Source: an uncultured bacterium (GTDB lineage Bacteria; Patescibacteriota; Minisyncoccia; Phycocordibacterales; Phycocordibacteraceae). Taken from it: 64,000 nt of DNA. Positions 9,669 through 23,091 of the stretch are shown here, piece after piece. The position numbers were made by a program, and so were the translations under genes. Each line of letters starts with the position of its first letter. The first letter of the stretch is position 1. The notes under the pieces are model-generated. The model saw nothing but the letters and a program-made list of their open reading frames with translations, made no database searches and was not told the DNA's origin. Where the stretch lies: contig CAWKPH010000001.1 of NCBI GenBank assembly GCA_963851445.1, positions 61,813-125,812 on the forward strand, written 5' to 3'.

Positions 9669-10974
9669 TTATTCCTGAATGAAGGTCAGTGCTTTACCGG
9701 CTGCACCTGCACGCCCTGTGCGGCCAATACGGTGGGTATAGTCCTCGTAGGTCGCGGGAAGATCGTAGTTTATAACGTGCGAAACAGCACTTATATCTAG
9801 GCCGCGTGCAGCGACATCGGTAGCTACAAGAACATTCACCTGACCTTGTTTGAAGAGGCCAAGCGCCTTCTGGCGACGCCCATGTGTCTTATCGCCATGG
9901 ATGGAATCAGCACGAATACCAACGTGATTAAGATCTCGTTCAAGACGCTCAACGCCATGCTTGGTACGGCCAAAGACGATTACCTTGTCGAACCCAGGTT
10001 GTTTAAGCAGGTTGGCAAGTACTTCGAGTTTTGATTCACCTGCCTTGATGCGGACAACATCTTGATCGACGGTCGCCGCGGTATCGCGTGTCTTTACCGA
10101 TACGACTACGGGCTTGTTGAGAAATTCGCCAACGAGCTTTTCGATTTCGCGTGAGAGCGTCGCTGAAAAGAACAACGTGTGGCGGGGGCTTGGCATTTGT
10201 CCGAGTATAAAGCGCATATCTGGAATGAATCCCATATCTAGCATACGATCAGCTTCATCGAGAACGACCGTGCCAAAGCTAGAAAAATTAAGTTCTCCTC
10301 GTTCTGCAAGATCCTTCAACCGCCCAGGAGTACCGATGACGAAGTTAGGATTGCGGCGAAGCTGTCGCATTTGTGGAACGATATTCGCCCCACCGACGCA
10401 ACAGACTGCATTAATGTTGAGAGTTTTTGCGAAGCCATAGAATTCCTGCTCGATTTGAAGCGCAAGTTCACGAGTAGGAACCATGATGAGTACGCGTTCA
10501 TCCTGTCCGAGTACGACGAAGCTTTATGATTTTGTCGAGAAGCGGAACGAGAAAGGCTGCTGTTTTACCAGTCCCTGTCTGCGCCATACCGACAACATCC
10601 TGACCCTTGAGCGCGAACGGAATTGCTTTGTCCTGAATCGGGGTTGGGGTTATATAGCCCTTTTTAATAATGTTGTCCTTGAGACGTTGGTCGATAGGAA
10701 AATCGGCGAATTGATGTTCAGGAATGAATACATCCTCGTCCTCAGTAACGACTGCCTTATTGATGAGTTTCGAAAGGTCGACGGACATCTCCTGGAAGCC
10801 TTTCTTTGACTTACCTCCTACAGAGCGGCCTCGAGAATTTGAGTACCTCGAACTGCCACGGTTACTATTTCCGCTTGAATTGTTGTTAAAACGTGAGCCG
10901 GAACTTCCACGACCGTAGTCGTTGGATCGCGGCGGGCGACGACCATCGGTACGTCGCATATATGTTGTTGCCAT
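9669..10974 (-). pseudogene. DEAD-box ATP-dependent RNA helicase interrupted by a 1-nt indel near 10498-10508 (or sequencing error)
   Basis: ORF 10498..10974 carries the Q-motif and motif I (AQTGTGKT). ORF 9669..10484 carries PTRELA, DEAD, SAT and the HRIGRTGR motifs. A second frame reads …[14 protein letters not shown] across the junction. Confidence 0.7.
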
Positions 10975-11486: not shown

Positions 11487-13277
11487 CTATTCTTTGCGGC
11501 GAGCCTTGGCGCGCTCTGTCTCGTTGAGGAATTGTTTACGTAAACGCACAGAGATTGGCGTGATTTCGAGGTATTCGTCCTCGGCCATGATCTCGAGGCC
11601 GCGTTCAATCGTGAGGGTAAATGCAGGCACGAGATTTATGGCTTCATCATTACCCGACGAGCGAACATTGGTCAGGTTCTTACCCTTCGTAGGATTTACC
11701 ATCATTTCTTCACCTTTGGACGTATTACCTATGACCATCCCTTCATACACTTCGGTAGCAGGAACAATGTAGAGCACACCACGTTCCTGAAGGCCCCAGA
11801 GTGCATAGCCAAGTGCTTTGCCAGAAGCCATTGAAATCATGGAGCCAACTTGGCGCTTTTTAATCTCCCCCACATAAGGCTTGAAGCCAATGAACCGTGA
11901 GGAAAGGATTCCTTCGCCTTTTGTGTCGATCACAAATTGATTACGGTAGCCCAAAAGACCACGAGTTGGCCCTTCGAATGTGAGACGCACCAGATCATCA
12001 TGTTGCACGAGATTTTGCATGACAAATGCACGCGTTCCAAGGCGTTCGATAATTGCTCCCTGGAATTCACTCGGTGTGTCAATGATAACTTCTTCGAACG
12101 GTTCCAATTTCTTTCCTTCCTCTTCACGAATAATGACCTGCGGCTGCGAAACTTGGAGCTCGTATCCTGAACGGCGCATATTTTCAAGAAGCACCGCGAT
12201 GTGTAGTTCGCCGCGACCCGAGACCTTGAACGAATCTGGTGAAACAAAATCGACTTTGAGACCGACATTTACTTCAAGCTCACGCTCGAGGTATTCACGT
12301 AGCTGCCGGCTTGTCACGTACTTCCCTTCACGCCCCGCGAATGGAGAGTTATTCACGAGAAAATTAACACTAATAGTTGGTTCATCAATCGCAATTGCAG
12401 GAAGCGGATCTGCGGCTGCATCAGCCGATACTGTCTCGCCAATGAAAATATCTGAAAGGCCGGCGACAATGACAATATCCCCTGCCTGCGCTTCAGGCAC
12501 GTCAGTACGATCAAGACCTGTAAAGGTGAAAACCTTGGTAAGCTTACCCGAACGACTCGTACCATCTGGTTTCTTTACCGTCACACTCTCGCCGGCATGC
12601 ACGATACCTTCATATATACGTGCGATCGCAAGACGTCCAAGAAAGTTATCATACGCAAGGTTGAATACCTGGAGGCGAAGTGGCTTGGCGAGCGCTTCGG
12701 GCGTTGATGCGGGAGGCACCTGCTCAAGTACAACATCAAGGAGTGGCGTAAGGTCCTTGCGTTCGTCGTCAAGCTTTCGCATGGCAACACCTTCGCGGCC
12801 AATCGAATACACCGTTGTAAAATTAGCCTGCTCATCAGTTGCACCAAGCTCAAGAAAGAGTTCGAGTACTTGTTCTTCAGCGCGCGCTGGATCTGCTGCT
12901 GGCTTATCAATTTTGTTGAGCACAACGATTGGTTTGAGCCCTAGTTCGAGCGATTTCTTTAGAACGAATCGCGTTTGTGGCATGGGGCCTTCCTGTGCAT
13001 CGACGATAAGAAGTACCGAATCAATCGAGCGGAGCACCCGCTCTACTTCTGAACCGAAATCCGCGTGCCCTGGTGTATCAACGATATTTATTTTTGTGCC
13101 CTTGTATTGGATTGAAACATTTTTTGAGTAGATTGTGATGCCGCGCTCCTGCTCAAGAGTATTTGAATCGATAGATACACCCGTAGAGACCGCGCCGGTC
13201 TGAGCAAGGATCGCATCGGTAAGAGTTGTTTTACCGTGGTCCACGTGCGCTATGATCGCAATGTTACGAATTTCCAT
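11487..13277 (-). CDS. typA: Translational GTPase TypA/BipA
   Basis: 596 aa ORF with G-domain motifs (AHVDHGKTT, DTPGH, NKID) and EF-G-like domains. Confidence 0.95.
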   Translation of the reverse strand: MEIRNIAIIAHVDHGKTTLTDAILAQTGAVSTGVSIDSNTLEQERGITIYSKNVSIQYKGTKINIVDTPGHADFGSEVERVLRSIDSVLLIVDAQEGPMPQTRFVLKKSLELGLKPIVVLNKIDKPAADPARAEEQVLELFLELGATDEQANFTTVYSIGREGVAMRKLDDERKDLTPLLDVVLEQVPPASTPEALAKPLRLQVFNLAYDNFLGRLAIARIYEGIVHAGESVTVKKPDGTSRSGKLTKVFTFTGLDRTDVPEAQAGDIVIVAGLSDIFIGETVSADAAADPLPAIAIDEPTISVNFLVNNSPFAGREGKYVTSRQLREYLERELEVNVGLKVDFVSPDSFKVSGRGELHIAVLLENMRRSGYELQVSQPQVIIREEEGKKLEPFEEVIIDTPSEFQGAIIERLGTRAFVMQNLVQHDDLVRLTFEGPTRGLLGYRNQFVIDTKGEGILSSRFIGFKPYVGEIKKRQVGSMISMASGKALGYALWGLQERGVLYIVPATEVYEGMVIGNTSKGEEMMVNPTKGKNLTNVRSSGNDEAINLVPAFTLTIERGLEIMAEDEYLEITPISVRLRKQFLNETERAKARRKE

Positions 13278-13377: not shown

Positions 13378-14355
13378 CTATTTGAGATATTCTTTAATAT
13401 TCGCAATCTGCCCTGCGTACGTATCCGAACAGTGGATCTGGCCTGTTGGGTCGTGGAGATAGTAAAGACAGTCTGTCTGTTCCGGGTTGAGGACAGCATT
13501 TATTGCCGCGAGGCTTGGTTCATCAATAGCATGCGGGGGTAACCCAGCGTGTTCATAAGTATTGAAGGGAGAATCAACGAGCTTATCAGCCGGAGTTGGA
13601 ACTGGCCACCAATCTGATTCATTGCCAACTACATACTGGAGAGTTGCGTCAATCTGAAGTGGCATATTATTTTTTAGACGATTAAAGATAATCCCTGCGA
13701 TGAGCGGCATATCGCTTGTGCCAGCAGCTTCACGTTCAATAAGTGAGGCAATTGTCACAACATTTGTCCACTGCAATCCTTCTTGCTCGGCTTGGTTTGC
13801 GTAGGGCGCAAATTCTTGTTGGAAACGATCCCGGAACCGCTCGGCAATTTGTGCAGGTGACTGCGCAGAAGAAATGAGGTAGGTATCGGGGAAATATACT
13901 CCTTCAACGTAAGCTGGCGAAGGATCGGTGTCTATATTCAGCCATTCGCTTTTCTGTGCGGCCGTCCAGTTAAATGTTGCCGCAAGCTTGTCAGCTATCT
14001 GCTCCTTACGCCAACCTGGAGGAAAGGTAAAGAAGACCAATGATGGTGGCTGCACCAAGGCACTCGCAATGCTCCATATATCCATGCTCGCTGAGAGCTC
14101 ATATCCTCCAGGTTGAATAGTTATACCTTTGTCGACATACTCGTACGCGATCTTAAGCGCAAGTCGACTTCGTACAAACCCCTGTGACTTTAAGGTATCG
14201 AAAACCTGATCAGAGGTTTCACCAGGATTTACCGTGAATTCTGTCTGGCCGGCATAGAGATCGACTGGACCAAAGTAATGCGCATACAGGAGCGCAATGA
14301 CAAAGAGAGCTAGAACGACTCCGCCTATGCTGATTGAAAATAAACGTCGTCTCAT
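13378..14355 (-). CDS. mltG: Endolytic murein transglycosylase MltG (YceG-like)
   Basis: 325 aa ORF with an N-terminal TM and a YceG-like domain (…LIEREAAGTSDMPLIAGIIFNRL…). Confidence 0.9.
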   Translation of the reverse strand: MRRRLFSISIGGVVLALFVIALLYAHYFGPVDLYAGQTEFTVNPGETSDQVFDTLKSQGFVRSRLALKIAYEYVDKGITIQPGGYELSASMDIWSIASALVQPPSLVFFTFPPGWRKEQIADKLAATFNWTAAQKSEWLNIDTDPSPAYVEGVYFPDTYLISSAQSPAQIAERFRDRFQQEFAPYANQAEQEGLQWTNVVTIASLIEREAAGTSDMPLIAGIIFNRLKNNMPLQIDATLQYVVGNESDWWPVPTPADKLVDSPFNTYEHAGLPPHAIDEPSLAAINAVLNPEQTDCLYYLHDPTGQIHCSDTYAGQIANIKEYLK

Positions 14356-14461: not shown

Positions 14462-14704
14462 CTATTTTATGAGCTCTAGCTTATCCTGCCGACGAAGCTG
14501 TTTTAGTCCATATTCGCGCTTCTGAGCCTCGCTTCGTGAGGCGCACTTCTCCCAGTAGCGAAGCACGACAGGTCGCCGGTTTTTCGTATACTGCGCTCCG
14601 TGAAGACTTCCGTTATGTTCAGTTATTCTTCGTTCAAGGTCAGTTGTATATCCGCAGTACAAGGTGCCGTCCGCGCATTCGACCATGTACACAAAATGAT
14701 TCAT
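14462..14704 (-). CDS. GIY-YIG nuclease family protein (YhbQ/URI-like, 80 aa)
   Basis: Contains the FVYMVECADGTLYCGYTTDLERRITEHN GIY-YIG core. Confidence 0.8.
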   Translation of the reverse strand: MNHFVYMVECADGTLYCGYTTDLERRITEHNGSLHGAQYTKNRRPVVLRYWEKCASRSEAQKREYGLKQLRRQDKLELIK

Positions 14705-15306
14705 GAAAGCTTATAGGTACTAATGATCCTGGCAGCCGCCTCAGAAAACTGCATTCCTATTGGAACAATTTCAAGCGGCATATTCGCTTCTTCAAGCGCT
14801 TGGCGCTTCTGTTCATCACTATGCATCCGTTCGAGACGCTGGTGATCAGGTCCGTTAAGCTCTATAGCGAGGATAGGCTGGAGCCATGCATTACAAATTA
14901 CAAAATCCAGATGTTTTGGGAGTATCTTATTGCGATTTACGTAGTATTTGCTACCGTGCATCGTCTCAATAACATCAGCGATTCGCATCTTTGGAAAAAT
15001 ACGAAAATCCTTCCCGATTTGTCGCTCAAGTTCGCGGTAAAAGGCGGTCTCCGTCGAGGTCATGACCATGCGACGTTTCCGATATGCGTGGGCCTCCTCT
15101 GGCCGTGCATGCATCGGCTCTGATCGTTGCACATCATGATATTGTTGTGCCAAACTTCGTTCACGGTGTCGTCCTCTGTGATTTTCTGTGTGAGCTAAAT
15201 GTGGATGATGAGTGTGCCATTCTGCTCTACCCACGAGAAAAATGAGTGCTGTGATGAGAACGATAATTACGAGAGAAAATACAAGCATCCTGCTCGCAGT
15301 ATACAA
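14701..15306 (-). CDS. Membrane-anchored DUF2726-like (restriction-endonuclease-like fold) protein with His-rich linker
   Basis: 201 aa ORF: N-terminal TM, a His/Arg-rich segment, then a DUF2726-like block (FYRELERQIGKDFRIFPKMRIADV…HLDFVICN…LAIELNGPDH). Its stop overlaps the GIY-YIG start (ATGA). Confidence 0.55.
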   Translation of the reverse strand: MYTASRMLVFSLVIIVLITALIFLVGRAEWHTHHPHLAHTENHRGRHRERSLAQQYHDVQRSEPMHARPEEAHAYRKRRMVMTSTETAFYRELERQIGKDFRIFPKMRIADVIETMHGSKYYVNRNKILPKHLDFVICNAWLQPILAIELNGPDHQRLERMHSDEQKRQALEEANMPLEIVPIGMQFSEAAARIISTYKLS

Positions 15307-15347
15307 CGCGTGTAGGACACTATCGCGTTATCTACACCTCACATATC

Positions 15348-16835
15348 TCAATTCGCCAAATCAAGAGTTAGATCGATTCGAATTTGCGAGACAAAATCCT
15401 GTACGTGACTCACGAGAATCATCGCGCCTTCGTATTGATCGAGTGCTTTAGCAATCACGGGCAAATGCCGGAAATTAATATGGTTAGTTGGTTCATCGAG
15501 AATGAGAAGCCCCGGGCGTTCAAGCACAAGACTTGCGAATGCCACAAGTCCTTTCTGCCCTTCTGAAAGCATGCCAATCTTCTTATGCATATGACTGCTG
15601 GTGAGGAGAAATCCTGCAGCAGTTGCCCGCATACGTTCCTCGTTTGGCTTTTCCATGGCTGCTAAAAGAGACTGGAAAACAGTCTTTTCGAAATCAAGTG
15701 TTGAGAAATCCTGACGGTAGTAGCCAACTTTTAGGGCTTTTGCAATCTTTGCACCCTCTGCGTGTCCGCTTGCAAGAGCTTCGAGAAGAGTGCTTTTCCC
15801 CGCACCGTTGGGACCCTTGATAAGCAAATGGTCCTTCTTTTTAAGCGAGACGCCGGCCGTGTGTATTTTGGGTTTGTGTGATTTAAAGCTCATTGACATA
15901 AAGGAGGTTATGCTCACGATTTCGCCAACGAGATTCTCTTGGACCGGAATTATAAATGGTCGAATGGTTTTATCCTCTTTACGTACGTCGACAACTGCTT
16001 CCTCCATCTCTTCAACTTCGCTGCGCATTTTCTTCGCAACGAGGCGCATCTTGCCTCCTTTTTGTGCGAAAAAGTTTGCTTTGTCCTTATTGGCTTGGAT
16101 CTTCTTCTCAAGTTGCGCATTCAGGCGATTCTCGCGTTCGATGCGAGCCGTTATTTCCTTGAGAAGATCAAAATAATTGCCAGTGTATTGTTCTACTTTC
16201 TGAGAGTGTAGATCGAGGTAGAGTACGCCCTGTGTAAATGAGTTGAGAAACTCTGCGTCGTGCGAAATAACAAGGCATGTCTTTTGATACTCCTTGAGAA
16301 ACTTGGTCAGATGCTCAATACCTGCAGCATCCAGATTATTCGTTGGTTCATCAAGAAGCAGTAGGTCGGGATTCTGGATGAGCGCAGATGCGAGGAGTAA
16401 TCGCGCTTGTTGGCCTCCGGAAAATGACTTAATGAGACGATCATGGGATGCCTTAAAGTTCACAATTTCGAGAGCGGCATCGATCTTTGGATCAATGTCA
16501 TACACTTTCTCGGTAAAACATTTCTCGAAGAATTCGCGGATTGTGAGGTCGCGCTCAGAAGCTGTGATCGCTTGATTTGCCATGGCAATAGAGAGTCCAT
16601 GCTGCTTCACAACCTTACCCTCGTCGGGTATAAGAGCGCCGGTTATGAGCTTGAATATCGTGCTCTTCCCCGCGCCATTTTGCCCCATCACCGTCACCTT
16701 CATGCCACGCCGAACTGAAAAATCCACCTCCTTTAATATAGGATGGTTGTGGCCGTAGCCGAATGAAAGCCCTTCAAAACGTAGGGCCGCTTCTCGCGGT
16801 CCTTGAGGGTTCGCATTTTTAGGAGTGGTGTCCAT
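15348..16835 (-). CDS. ABC-F family ATPase (two tandem ABC domains, no TMD)
   Basis: 495 aa ORF with two Walker A motifs (GQNGAGKST, GPNGAGKST) and two ABC signatures (LSGGQQARLLLA, LSEGQKGLVAFA). Confidence 0.85.
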   Translation of the reverse strand: MDTTPKNANPQGPREAALRFEGLSFGYGHNHPILKEVDFSVRRGMKVTVMGQNGAGKSTIFKLITGALIPDEGKVVKQHGLSIAMANQAITASERDLTIREFFEKCFTEKVYDIDPKIDAALEIVNFKASHDRLIKSFSGGQQARLLLASALIQNPDLLLLDEPTNNLDAAGIEHLTKFLKEYQKTCLVISHDAEFLNSFTQGVLYLDLHSQKVEQYTGNYFDLLKEITARIERENRLNAQLEKKIQANKDKANFFAQKGGKMRLVAKKMRSEVEEMEEAVVDVRKEDKTIRPFIIPVQENLVGEIVSITSFMSMSFKSHKPKIHTAGVSLKKKDHLLIKGPNGAGKSTLLEALASGHAEGAKIAKALKVGYYRQDFSTLDFEKTVFQSLLAAMEKPNEERMRATAAGFLLTSSHMHKKIGMLSEGQKGLVAFASLVLERPGLLILDEPTNHINFRHLPVIAKALDQYEGAMILVSHVQDFVSQIRIDLTLDLAN

Positions 16836-16879: not shown

Positions 16880-17428
16880 TCAAATTCGATATTCTTTACG
16901 CAATTCACTTCTACACGCCTTGTAATCGGGAACGGTCTTTGTAACTAATTTCCAAAACCGTTCTGAATGATTCATTTCCTTGAGGTGGCAAAGCTCGTGC
17001 ACAATAATGTAGTCCGCAAGATGCGACGGCAGGAGTGCAATACGAAAATTAAAACTGAGTGTGCCCCTTTTTGAACAACTCCCCCAGCGTGTTTTCTGAT
17101 TTCTCATAGTTACTCTCGAGTATTGAAACCCATAAAACTGATTGAAGTACGTGAGTCGTGAAAGAGCCAGTGTTCGGGCATGATCCCTATATCCTTTACT
17201 CTCAGCTACAGAAAACTTTTTAGGACCACTTATTTCTTTTTGCCTCCCATCCTCGAATTTAGTGAATGTTTTCTCAATCCATACTGATTTTGTCTTAAGA
17301 AATTGCTCTACTACTTCAACGGAGACCTTCCGAGGTGTGGTAACCACAATTCGACCATCAGGATGGATTGTAAGTATCGTACTTTTCGCACGACGATTTA
17401 TTCTGTGAGTATAATTCCATTCGCGCAT
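16880..17428 (-). CDS. YgjP-like metal-dependent hydrolase (DUF45/SprT-like, HExxH)
   Basis: 182 aa ORF with WGSCS and HELCHLKEMNHSERFW motifs. Confidence 0.75.
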   Translation of the reverse strand: MREWNYTHRINRRAKSTILTIHPDGRIVVTTPRKVSVEVVEQFLKTKSVWIEKTFTKFEDGRQKEISGPKKFSVAESKGYRDHARTLALSRLTYFNQFYGFQYSRVTMRNQKTRWGSCSKRGTLSFNFRIALLPSHLADYIIVHELCHLKEMNHSERFWKLVTKTVPDYKACRSELRKEYRI

Positions 17429-17466: not shown

Positions 17467-18687
17467 TTACTGATACTGTATAAACATCGGTTGCGGTGTA
17501 AGCTGAAGCACTTCCTGTGGCGTCATCATACCCGTTGAAGGGGGACGCAAATCATTAACGAAAAATAGCTTGAACCCGGTGAATTGAACTGGCTCGTCTT
17601 CAATAAATTTCGCATACGTGTTCTTTTTTCGCGCAGGTGAGCCCCAGCCGTCCATGTCCATCACAATCTCGACTTGCGGGAGCGGCGTAATGTCCTGTGT
17701 ATTCGTAACCATATCCTGGGTGAAGCGGTGTACGATGAGGATTTTTGGTGGCAGATTGTACTCCTCTACAAGACCCGCGAGGTAGTTGGCAGCAAAATTT
17801 ATGTCGCTTGCGTCCAGTGTGCCAATCTCTGTTCCTGGAGGGGCACCGTCTTTCATCGAGAATTCTGGATCAAGTGCGAGTTCAACATTGGGTAGTGCGA
17901 GATATTTCTCAAGAAGCGGCACCTCTGTCTGCACATTACTGAGACCCACTTGTACATCGAGTATGAGGACACCGTGTTCTTGATTTGCTAATCCAAGCGC
18001 TTCCTCGATCTGGCTATCGGGCATACGGAGCCTATATTTGCCATCTGCACCTGGACTTCCCTGCGCGGTAACGGCGATATAATCAATTCCCGGTACAACA
18101 GGGGTACTCGGGTCTGCGGCCTGCCACTGGGCTACGGTCGCGTTCAGCATCTGAAGCATCTGCGGCACGGGATACTTTCCGAGAACTCCCATTGAGGTGG
18201 AGTAGAAGTTTCCGTAGTAAGCGACAATGCGACTAAATGGGAGGATTGCACCTGCATTTGGATAAACCGTTTTCACTGGCCATAAGGGGGGTGGGTCGGC
18301 AACTGCCACCGCGGCTGAGGCGGTGGAGCTACTCATCATAGAAGCCGAAGAGGTTGCAACAGGAACAATTGGTTCATTGGCAATTTCTTGCAGTTTTTGG
18401 TTGTAAAGGGCGATGTTGAGGGTCGGAACTACGGGGGGTGTTGAGGTTGCTGCAGTGGAACTTGCGGTCACAACGATTTGCGCATGTACATGGTCATAAA
18501 GTCCTGTGAAAAAGTTAGTGAAGGTAAGGAAATAAAGCGTCGTAAGATATATGATGCAGGTAATGAAACTGAAAATAAAAACGAGCCGTTTTCTATCGGC
18601 TTTCGATTTTTCTTGCATTTGATCGTTCTCCAAGCGATTCTTATTTTTCTTCGTAAACAAAGCCATGTGGTACACCCTACTATACAA
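17467..18687 (-). CDS. Hypothetical membrane-anchored extracytoplasmic protein (possible glycoside-hydrolase-like TIM-barrel domain)
   Basis: 406 aa ORF with an N-terminal TM and a Ser/Thr/Ala-rich linker. The C-terminal domain is unrecognized, so the call is low-confidence. Confidence 0.4.
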   Translation of the reverse strand: MYSRVYHMALFTKKNKNRLENDQMQEKSKADRKRLVFIFSFITCIIYLTTLYFLTFTNFFTGLYDHVHAQIVVTASSTAATSTPPVVPTLNIALYNQKLQEIANEPIVPVATSSASMMSSSTASAAVAVADPPPLWPVKTVYPNAGAILPFSRIVAYYGNFYSTSMGVLGKYPVPQMLQMLNATVAQWQAADPSTPVVPGIDYIAVTAQGSPGADGKYRLRMPDSQIEEALGLANQEHGVLILDVQVGLSNVQTEVPLLEKYLALPNVELALDPEFSMKDGAPPGTEIGTLDASDINFAANYLAGLVEEYNLPPKILIVHRFTQDMVTNTQDITPLPQVEIVMDMDGWGSPARKKNTYAKFIEDEPVQFTGFKLFFVNDLRPPSTGMMTPQEVLQLTPQPMFIQYQ

Positions 18688-21695: not shown

Positions 21696-22220
21696 TTAAA
21701 TAGTTACATCCATCTGTAACGTTTCCTTAATTTCATTCAGCGTTTCTTGGATATTCTTGTCTTTTGTATCTATAACAACCGCATCTAATCGCTCCTTTCT
21801 AAGCGCATCAGCTTTCTCCCACAACTTTCCCACCTTTTCTGGAGTAAGAAGGCTTCCCGGCCTATATCCACGCTCGTCTGCACGCGCTTGGGTGGTGGCT
21901 TTGTCAGCAAACAAGAGAAACTCGTATACCTCTGCGTTGTACTTCTTGGCTACAGCAATAAACAACTCAAGAGTATCTGAGTACGAAATAGCCTTATCAA
22001 TAATTACGCTCTGCCCATTTCTAAAGGCTCCGTCGATGGCGCCTGCTGCTTTCTCATAAGCAAGGCTGAGACTTTCTTCCTGGTTTTCCTTGTAGTCTGG
22101 TATCGAGCGGCGAATCTCATCTACATCAATAAGAACCGAGTTCGGCATATCTGCATGTAGTAATGTCGAAATTGTAGACTTGCCCACTCCCGACGGACCA
22201 TTGAGGATGATAAGTTTCAT
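21696..22220 (-). CDS. P-loop NTPase, AAA_33/zeta-toxin/CPT-like small-molecule kinase
   Basis: 174 aa ORF with Walker A (LNGPSGVGKST) and a small kinase-like fold. Confidence 0.6.
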   Translation of the reverse strand: MKLIILNGPSGVGKSTISTLLHADMPNSVLIDVDEIRRSIPDYKENQEESLSLAYEKAAGAIDGAFRNGQSVIIDKAISYSDTLELFIAVAKKYNAEVYEFLLFADKATTQARADERGYRPGSLLTPEKVGKLWEKADALRKERLDAVVIDTKDKNIQETLNEIKETLQMDVTI

Positions 22221-22228
22221 ATTTCCGC

Positions 22229-22729
22229 TTAGCCTATTAGCTTCTTAAGTTCTGCGACATCTATACGATCTGATTCCCGTTGCCACATGAGCATCTCTTT
22301 GTTTTTTATGATAAGTGCCTTGGAAAGAAGTGGTAATTTGAATCTCTGCCATTCGACTACTTCAACATTAGGGAAACCGTCTTTGTAGAAATTCTCGTAC
22401 TTTTGGATTTCCTTATCAAAAATATCCATCTCGGACATAGGACAGATATCCAAAATTTCCATCACTTCTACGTTGTAGTTGTCGTAGTTCTGGTCAAAAA
22501 AATGTTCGAGGGGACTCGTGATGTATGGCTCCACAATTGAGAGAAATTCCTTGAAGACAGCGTCATCTTTGGAGACTTCAATATCAATGTCAATGTCCGT
22601 GATACTGCGAGGTACACCGTACACGTAGCATGCAAATCCACCCGTGATGCACCAGCGCAAATTGAGCTTTTCAAGAATCGGAATTATATACGTAAGCGCT
22701 TCATATGCTTTTTGCTGTTCGGGACTCAT
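22229..22729 (-). CDS. Nucleotidyltransferase-fold protein (aminoglycoside/lincosamide NTase-like)
   Basis: Contains the NTase signature GGFACYVYGVPRSITDIDIDI (GS…D.D). Start taken at MSPEQQ to avoid overlap with the dgkA-like stop. Confidence 0.5.
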   Translation of the reverse strand: MSPEQQKAYEALTYIIPILEKLNLRWCITGGFACYVYGVPRSITDIDIDIEVSKDDAVFKEFLSIVEPYITSPLEHFFDQNYDNYNVEVMEILDICPMSEMDIFDKEIQKYENFYKDGFPNVEVVEWQRFKLPLLSKALIIKNKEMLMWQRESDRIDVAELKKLIG

Positions 22730-22740
22730 GTTGAATTTTT

Positions 22741-23091
22741 CTAAGCAAACTTCCGAATCAGGATGAAAGCAAGACAAACGAGTCCGAATATCGCTGCCCA
22801 AAAAACAGCTGCCGAAGCTAAATCCTTACTGCGTCCAATTGCTTCATCACGTGCAGGGTGGATCTTGCTGAGCGCCATTTCAATTGCTGAATTCTGTAAC
22901 TCAGTGACTATTACAAAGAACCAGCAGAATGTAAGTAATAGCATGTCATCCGGAGAAAGATCGAATAAGAAATAAACAATTGGGAGTCCAATAACAGCAA
23001 GCGCGATATCGATTTGGATAGCGCTATCATGCGTAAGAGCGTAGAGCAATCCACGAAACGGGTGTGAGAATCTTGTAATCCAATACTTCAT
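22741..23091 (-). CDS. Diacylglycerol kinase family protein (prokaryotic DgkA/undecaprenol kinase type)
   Basis: 116 aa ORF with three TM helices and the ALTHD…NSAIE…DLASAAV motifs. Confidence 0.75.
   Translation of the reverse strand: MKYWITRFSHPFRGLLYALTHDSAIQIDIALAVIGLPIVYFLFDLSPDDMLLLTFCWFFVIVTELQNSAIEMALSKIHPARDEAIGRSKDLASAAVFWAAIFGLVCLAFILIRKFA

Follow-up and report, generated by a model that had tools for sequence, protein, structure and literature searches.

The membrane-anchored DUF2726 protein and the small GIY-YIG nuclease encoded side by side in this stretch of Patescibacteria DNA (64,000 nucleotides, hereafter the window) are probably the products of two independent genes, neighbours in one lineage of small-genome Patescibacteria that its best homologues place as Parcubacteria-like, and not the components of a purpose-built two-nuclease system. 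Each protein is an unremarkable member of a known family, and their genes are chance neighbours in a compact genome. The DUF2726 gene would most likely have been inserted into the short spacer between an ABC-F gene and the GIY-YIG gene, genome compaction would have left its stop codon overlapping the GIY-YIG start, and co-expression of the two proteins would be an accident of position, not the mark of a dedicated machine. The locus is an example in which a 4-nt overlap of two nuclease-type genes in a compact genome does not amount to evidence of a system.

Both ORFs were present on the minus strand, the DUF2726 ORF (201 aa, Vsr-like PD-(D/E)XK fold) at 14701-15306 and the GIY-YIG ORF (80 aa) at 14462-14704, in a long stretch of genes read in the same direction; a crude longest-ORF gene map puts 66 of the window's 77 ORF calls on the minus strand. 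Read 5' to 3' on that strand, the local order begins with a YgjP-like metallopeptidase gene (16880-17428) and an ABC-F family ATPase gene (15348-16835), continues through the two ORFs and proceeds to a YceG/MltG gene (13378-14355) and a TypA/BipA-like GTPase gene (11487-13277), the last named from GTP-binding sequence motifs and not from a profile search. The ABC-F assignment follows two Pfam ABC_tran domains with an ABC_tran_Xtn domain and matches to NCBIfam ABC-F models, of which the best, NF000355, fell short of its cut-off with 321.6 bits. The start codon of the 201-aa ORF is a TTG at 15306, and an in-frame ATG at 15288 gives a 195-aa form corresponding to the public gene call (P0001), which is on a 687,765-bp contig; exact protein look-up of the TTG-start form returned no match. 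Pfam profile scans showed that the neighbours of the DUF2726 gene within about 8 kb are all housekeeping or miscellaneous genes, with no restriction-modification (R-M) gene found in that interval. Upstream of the YgjP-like gene, a 406-aa ORF (17467-18687, minus strand) with a hydrophobic N-terminal stretch followed by Ala/Ser/Thr/Pro-rich low complexity had no Pfam or NCBIfam match.

The smaller protein had been described in the initial annotation as a minimal GIY-YIG nuclease of the YhbQ/Slx1 URI type, a description borne out by profile searches. Residues 2-74 matched PF01541 (E=9.7e-19, 67.9 bits against a cut-off of 22.6), and nearly the whole chain aligned with two UPF0213 proteins of known structure, EF2693 (PDB 1ywl, E=7.4e-18, residues 2-79) and BH0048 (PDB 1zg2, E=5.7e-17, residues 1-79), while similarity to Slx1 was marginal (E=0.012-0.22) and the NCBIfam search gave only a sub-threshold intron-endonuclease match. 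Every column invariant among 29 homologues is retained (Y6, C10, D12, Y16, G18, R26, H30, A37, T40, P45, V46 and E64), and N31 is nearly invariant in the same set, the window protein included; we take the two motif tyrosines and the conserved arginine, His/Asn and glutamate to form the catalytic core, as is general for the family. The chain stops at residue 80, right behind the URI domain, and carries no extra domains. In its length class (80-107 aa), single URI domain, full-length alignment (E~1e-17) and conserved Tyr, Gly, Arg, His and Glu positions, it thus resembles the UPF0213 proteins YhbQ of E. coli and YazA of B. subtilis, from which it differs only in the genomic position of its gene, downstream of an inserted DUF2726 gene. 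It shares the GIY-YIG/URI catalytic domain family with eukaryotic Slx1, and YhbQ and YazA are reported to belong to that family (PMC7017083), but Slx1 also carries a zinc finger at its C terminus and works with an obligate partner, Slx4, whereas no Slx1-type zinc finger (RING/PHD-type) follows the URI domain of the 80-aa protein. By profile and alignment it is a widespread stand-alone URI nuclease of the UPF0213/YhbQ/YazA type, and from family membership its presumed activity is that of a small DNA endonuclease resembling Slx1.

The larger protein matched PF10881 (DUF2726) at about three times the cut-off (E=6.8e-22, 78 bits against 24.7). The match envelope, residues 79-181 (14764-15072, minus strand), delimits a predicted nuclease core modelled mostly at pLDDT 85-97. 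Its restriction-endonuclease-like alpha/beta core is closest to Vsr, DUF559 proteins and I-Bth0305I, the best structural matches being the DUF559 protein 3hrl, the I-Bth0305I catalytic domain 3r3p and Vsr 1cw0; DUF2726 has likewise been grouped in this branch of the PD-(D/E)XK superfamily, as a functionally uncharacterized family that has been transferred multiple times and has a mobile-element context in Fusobacteria (Steczkiewicz et al. 2012, PMC3424549). Alignment with homologues showed the family-invariant D134, E149, H155 and D164 to be present, and residue 151, at the E-x-D position, to be Asn in the window protein and four of its nearest relatives and Asp in most members. A search for representatives of the family gave 4468 at E<=1e-3, a number that fell to 525 at a threshold of 1e-10 and to 6 at 1e-30, one of the last being the protein itself, and the best non-self relative reached only 48-51% identity. 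NCBIfam holds no model for the protein. In PADLOC-DB 2.0.0 neither window protein was matched at E<=0.1, and ten DUF2726 relatives gave no match except a marginal one to mREase_II (E=0.003). The sole match at the locus in a PHROGs search was to phrog_14167, a family of unknown function (E=2.9e-5).

Vsr, the DUF559 proteins and I-Bth0305I are soluble, whereas the DUF2726 subfamily of the window is anchored in the membrane at its N terminus; the window copy further departs from that branch by its lineage-specific His/Arg-rich linker and the Asn at E-x-D. Hydropathy and the AlphaFold model place a transmembrane helix at about residues 7-27 (15226-15288, minus strand): the best hydrophobic 19-mer spans residues 7-25, with a Kyte-Doolittle mean of 3.24, residues 2-30 are modelled as helical, and the membrane helix has a pLDDT of 86-97. 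The linker, residues 29-52 (15151-15222, minus strand), contains 7 His in 24 residues and is modelled as disordered over residues 33-50 (pLDDT <50). The proposed architecture of a single transmembrane helix, a His/Arg-rich segment and a restriction-endonuclease-like DUF2726 core is therefore present in full, but its elements differ in how widely the family shares them. An anchor was found in 42 of 75 DUF2726 relatives from GTDB genomes and in 103 of the full-length cluster representatives, which make up 133 of the best 149; a comparable His-rich stretch occurred in only one of those 149, and 12 aligned homologues had no counterpart of the linker. These comparisons indicate that the anchor is a common family trait, making no special combination, and that the His-rich linker is idiosyncratic to the window protein.

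The window helix is preceded by one Lys/Arg and followed by five within 25 residues, and an excess of Lys/Arg C-terminal to the helix was seen in 101 of the 103 anchored representatives, whose N-terminal tails have a median of 3 residues. By the positive-inside rule, this charge distribution suggests that the helix would serve as a signal anchor holding the Vsr/DUF559-like PD-(D/E)XK domain at the cytoplasmic face of the membrane. An extracellular DNA-uptake nuclease, in keeping with the earlier suggestion of a role in DNA uptake, was rejected as a candidate because the Lys/Arg distribution points inward.

The stop codon of the DUF2726 ORF (TGA) and the start codon of the GIY-YIG ORF (ATG) share an ATGA at 14701-14704 on the minus strand, as the initial annotation had reported. 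No Shine-Dalgarno-like purine run was found in the 15 nt upstream of the GIY-YIG ATG, which makes coupling by reinitiation plausible, and translation of the GIY-YIG ORF may depend on reinitiation after the DUF2726 ORF. The exact overlap, together with the missing ribosome-binding site, implies that the two proteins are probably co-expressed. The overlap is nothing unusual here and reflects tight gene packing: in the crude longest-ORF gene map, 3 of the 59 same-strand junctions in the window have a -4 overlap, and 16 of the 59 are no longer than 15 nt, overlaps included. It also reflects the habit of the GIY-YIG gene of abutting whatever lies upstream. In a scan of the region, promoter-like sites numbered 6 where shuffled sequence averaged 5.9, and there were 7 terminator-like sites against 3.8; since these counts lie near those of shuffled sequence, operon boundaries could not be drawn from the scan. 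A terminator-like hairpin at 15280-15298 (minus strand; 8 pairs, 3 of them G-C, then a T-rich run) overlaps the first DUF2726 codons just past the ABC-F stop, in a region where the total of such sites is not clearly above that of shuffled sequence.

Conservation of the gene neighbourhood, the check proposed with the initial annotation, was examined from both sides. On the DUF2726 side, six-frame translations of 80 GTDB contigs (one genome per species), 27 viral contigs and 7 loci obtained by exact protein look-up were searched with a GIY-YIG profile built from 29 UPF0213-type proteins only and liable to miss strongly diverged GIY-YIG subfamilies encoded close to a DUF2726 gene. No UPF0213-type GIY-YIG ORF was found within 5 kb of the DUF2726 relatives at the 80 genome loci, within 4 kb at the 27 viral loci, or near those at the 7 looked-up loci, and switching off the HMMER filters at E<=10 brought no change (top score 8.9 bits). 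Conversely, the DUF2726 profile detected no DUF2726 gene at 80 metagenome GIY-YIG loci or at 6 further ones obtained by protein look-ups (best E=3.9). The pair was thus never seen at 187 related loci pooled from both sides (80 genome, 27 viral and 80 metagenome), and the two genes occurred together only in L001, which is the sequence of the window in another assembly. Fusions of the two domains were absent from the best 149 DUF2726 representatives, and precomputed Pfam architectures (13 and 40 protein matches) held none joining them. Among the loci searched, then, the adjacency is unique to this genome. The view of the pair as a system not previously described agrees with the lack of any PADLOC match and of any paper linking YhbQ-type GIY-YIG proteins with DUF2726; what did not survive is the notion that it is a functional module. 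Of the two outcomes that had been named as counting against it, assignment of the 201-aa protein to a non-nuclease family was not found, the protein staying within the nuclease-fold family DUF2726, while non-conservation of the adjacency in other genomes (0 of 107 DUF2726 loci, 0 of 80 GIY-YIG loci) was.

In the closest relatives the place upstream of the GIY-YIG gene is taken by the ABC-F gene. The nearest GIY-YIG homologues, from Parcubacteria bacterium C7867-004 (70% identity) and from GCA_018826595 (JAHJYZ01, 62%), are encoded immediately behind an ABC-F gene, 19 and 2 nt away respectively, and nothing lies between. The ABC-F orthologues at loci L090 and L091, with GIY-YIG genes following after 19 and 2 nt, are 74% identical to that of the window over the full length. 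The same order recurs at L100, L107 and L111, and was found at 9 of 86 GIY-YIG loci in all, every one of them among the nearest relatives of the window. In this clade the GIY-YIG gene is probably inherited vertically, immediately downstream of the ABC-F gene. Because ABC-F directly abuts GIY-YIG in the nearest relatives and the DUF2726 gene stands between them here, a lineage-specific insertion is most likely. At another locus (L098) the slot is occupied by a different, unrelated ORF of roughly 99 aa that contains hydrophobic segments and whose end also overlaps the GIY-YIG start. The simplest reading of these alignments and gene orders is that ABC-F/GIY-YIG would be an inherited arrangement whose spacer accepts insertions. 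The ABC-F and GIY-YIG genes (14462-16835, minus strand, in the window; L089-L093, L098, L100, L107 and L111 elsewhere) have been kept together, with a gap of 2-19 nt, despite differing outer flanks (HI0933-like and DoxX-M23 in the relatives, YgjP and YceG-TypA in the window), and their staying together in this Parcubacteria clade may deserve a specialist's glance.

The opposite polarity, in which ABC-F/DUF2726/GIY-YIG is the ancestral order, lost repeatedly in relatives and leaving the DUF2726 gene as a decaying resident, appears improbable. It would accord with a GC content of the DUF2726 gene (0.45-0.48) equal to that of its flanks, giving no compositional mark of recent transfer, and with the lack of insertion scars: neither flanking repeats nor mobile-element genes were found at the DUF2726 gene, only short chance repeats, so that the insertion is argued solely from synteny with relatives. 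Yet the two-gene arrangement occurs in at least five distinct related lineages, one relative carries a different gene in the slot, and relatives of the DUF2726 protein reach no more than about 51% identity, against 74% for ABC-F, which points to a history separate from that of its neighbour. Were the longer order ancestral, the verdict that there is no conserved system would still hold. A further alternative is a recently evolved two-nuclease module, in which the tethered DUF2726 protein would recruit or activate the GIY-YIG nuclease as Slx4 does Slx1, with translational coupling setting the stoichiometry. Slx1-family nucleases are weak alone and activated by partners (PMC7017083), and the ATGA overlap, the GIY-YIG start without a Shine-Dalgarno-like sequence and the family-invariant residues kept in both proteins would all suit such a module. 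Against these stand its singleton status (absent from the 107 DUF2726 loci, the 80 GIY-YIG loci and 13 further ones, with no fusions), the commonness of short or overlapping junctions in this genome, and the equally tight fit of the GIY-YIG gene against ABC-F or an unrelated small ORF in the nearest relatives. Since the adjacency is not conserved and the GIY-YIG gene directly follows ABC-F in those relatives, the module is unsupported, and we consider it very improbable.

The surroundings of DUF2726 relatives were surveyed for clues to the role of the protein itself, using a Pfam scan of the 65 same-strand genes lying within 150 nt of them. There was no constant partner, no Pfam family being common to more than 3 of the 65, but the neighbours had a recognizable flavour: DNA methylases, ResIII, a Schlafen-type helicase, TraC/TraG, DpnII, NERD, AAA_15 and Type ISP enzymes. 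Among the closest single-TM DUF2726 loci, from Patescibacteria and unassigned metagenome contigs, the adjacent gene encodes a type IIG R-M enzyme (L009), an N6_N4 methylase (L010), a Type ISP enzyme with a 4-nt overlap (L027), a Schlafen-type helicase (L043), DpnII (L065), a NERD nuclease (L080), a methylase with EcoO109I (L002) or AAA_15 with GmrSD (L006). Relatives are also encoded on 81 plasmid records, 49 of them conjugative. Four of the 65 neighbours matched the PADLOC model mad8 (mads_8), with a best E of 4.9e-12.

We take DUF2726 to be a large, horizontally mobile family of small one-helix membrane proteins. Because relatives adjoin R-M or defence genes and occur on plasmids, the most probable role of the window protein would be that of a solitary defence-type or selfish DNA nuclease. 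This is the least secure step of our account; the defence role draws on the kinds of gene found next to a minority of the loci. The likeness to accessory or solitary nucleases of R-M systems and defence islands lies in the proximity of relatives to type II, IIG and ISP R-M, DpnII, EcoO109I, NERD and GmrSD/AAA_15 genes and in their presence on some conjugative plasmids; the difference lies in the lack of a PADLOC model and of a constant partner, and in the surroundings of the window copy, which belongs to a housekeeping operon and has no R-M gene close by. Second in rank comes a part in DNA uptake or salvage. In that account the protein would be a membrane-associated nuclease for DNA arriving through a competence channel, in a host without nucleotide synthesis of its own, and the GIY-YIG gene would be incidental. 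Patescibacteria depend on scavenged nucleotides, and the anchor would put the nuclease domain at the inner membrane face, where imported DNA emerges, but the only direct hint, a ComEC-type Competence domain, came from one of the 65 neighbours, whereas R-M and defence neighbours turned up repeatedly. The patchy distribution of the family and its absence from this site in the nearest relatives are unlike a core salvage function, and it is found in many nucleotide-making phyla and on plasmids; we regard this account as unlikely. A bolder proposal, that single-TM DUF2726 proteins provide a one-gene, membrane-tethered defence acting on incoming DNA at the inner face, here also wired by coupling to the Slx1-like GIY-YIG protein as a two-nuclease effector, is one to which we attach hardly any probability. 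At 50% identity the single-TM DUF2726 proteins fall into hundreds of clusters; their genes often adjoin those of R-M systems, and PADLOC includes none of them. This large membrane-anchored subfamily, of unknown function and repeatedly found beside R-M genes in Patescibacteria, may merit a specialist's attention.

Two other sites in the window were recorded in passing. On the minus strand at 9669-10974, a DEAD-box helicase is divided between two ORFs: the DEAD domain begins in 10498-10974, and its remainder lies with Helicase_C in 9669-10484. The frame changes near 10500-10520, which could reflect a frameshift, a pseudogene or an error in sequencing. Further upstream of the nuclease ORFs, a Zeta-toxin/AAA_33-like kinase ORF (21696-22220, minus strand) adjoins an ORF at 22229-22801 with weak likeness to aminoglycoside nucleotidyltransferases, and the two (21696-22801) may form a small toxin or resistance-type pair.
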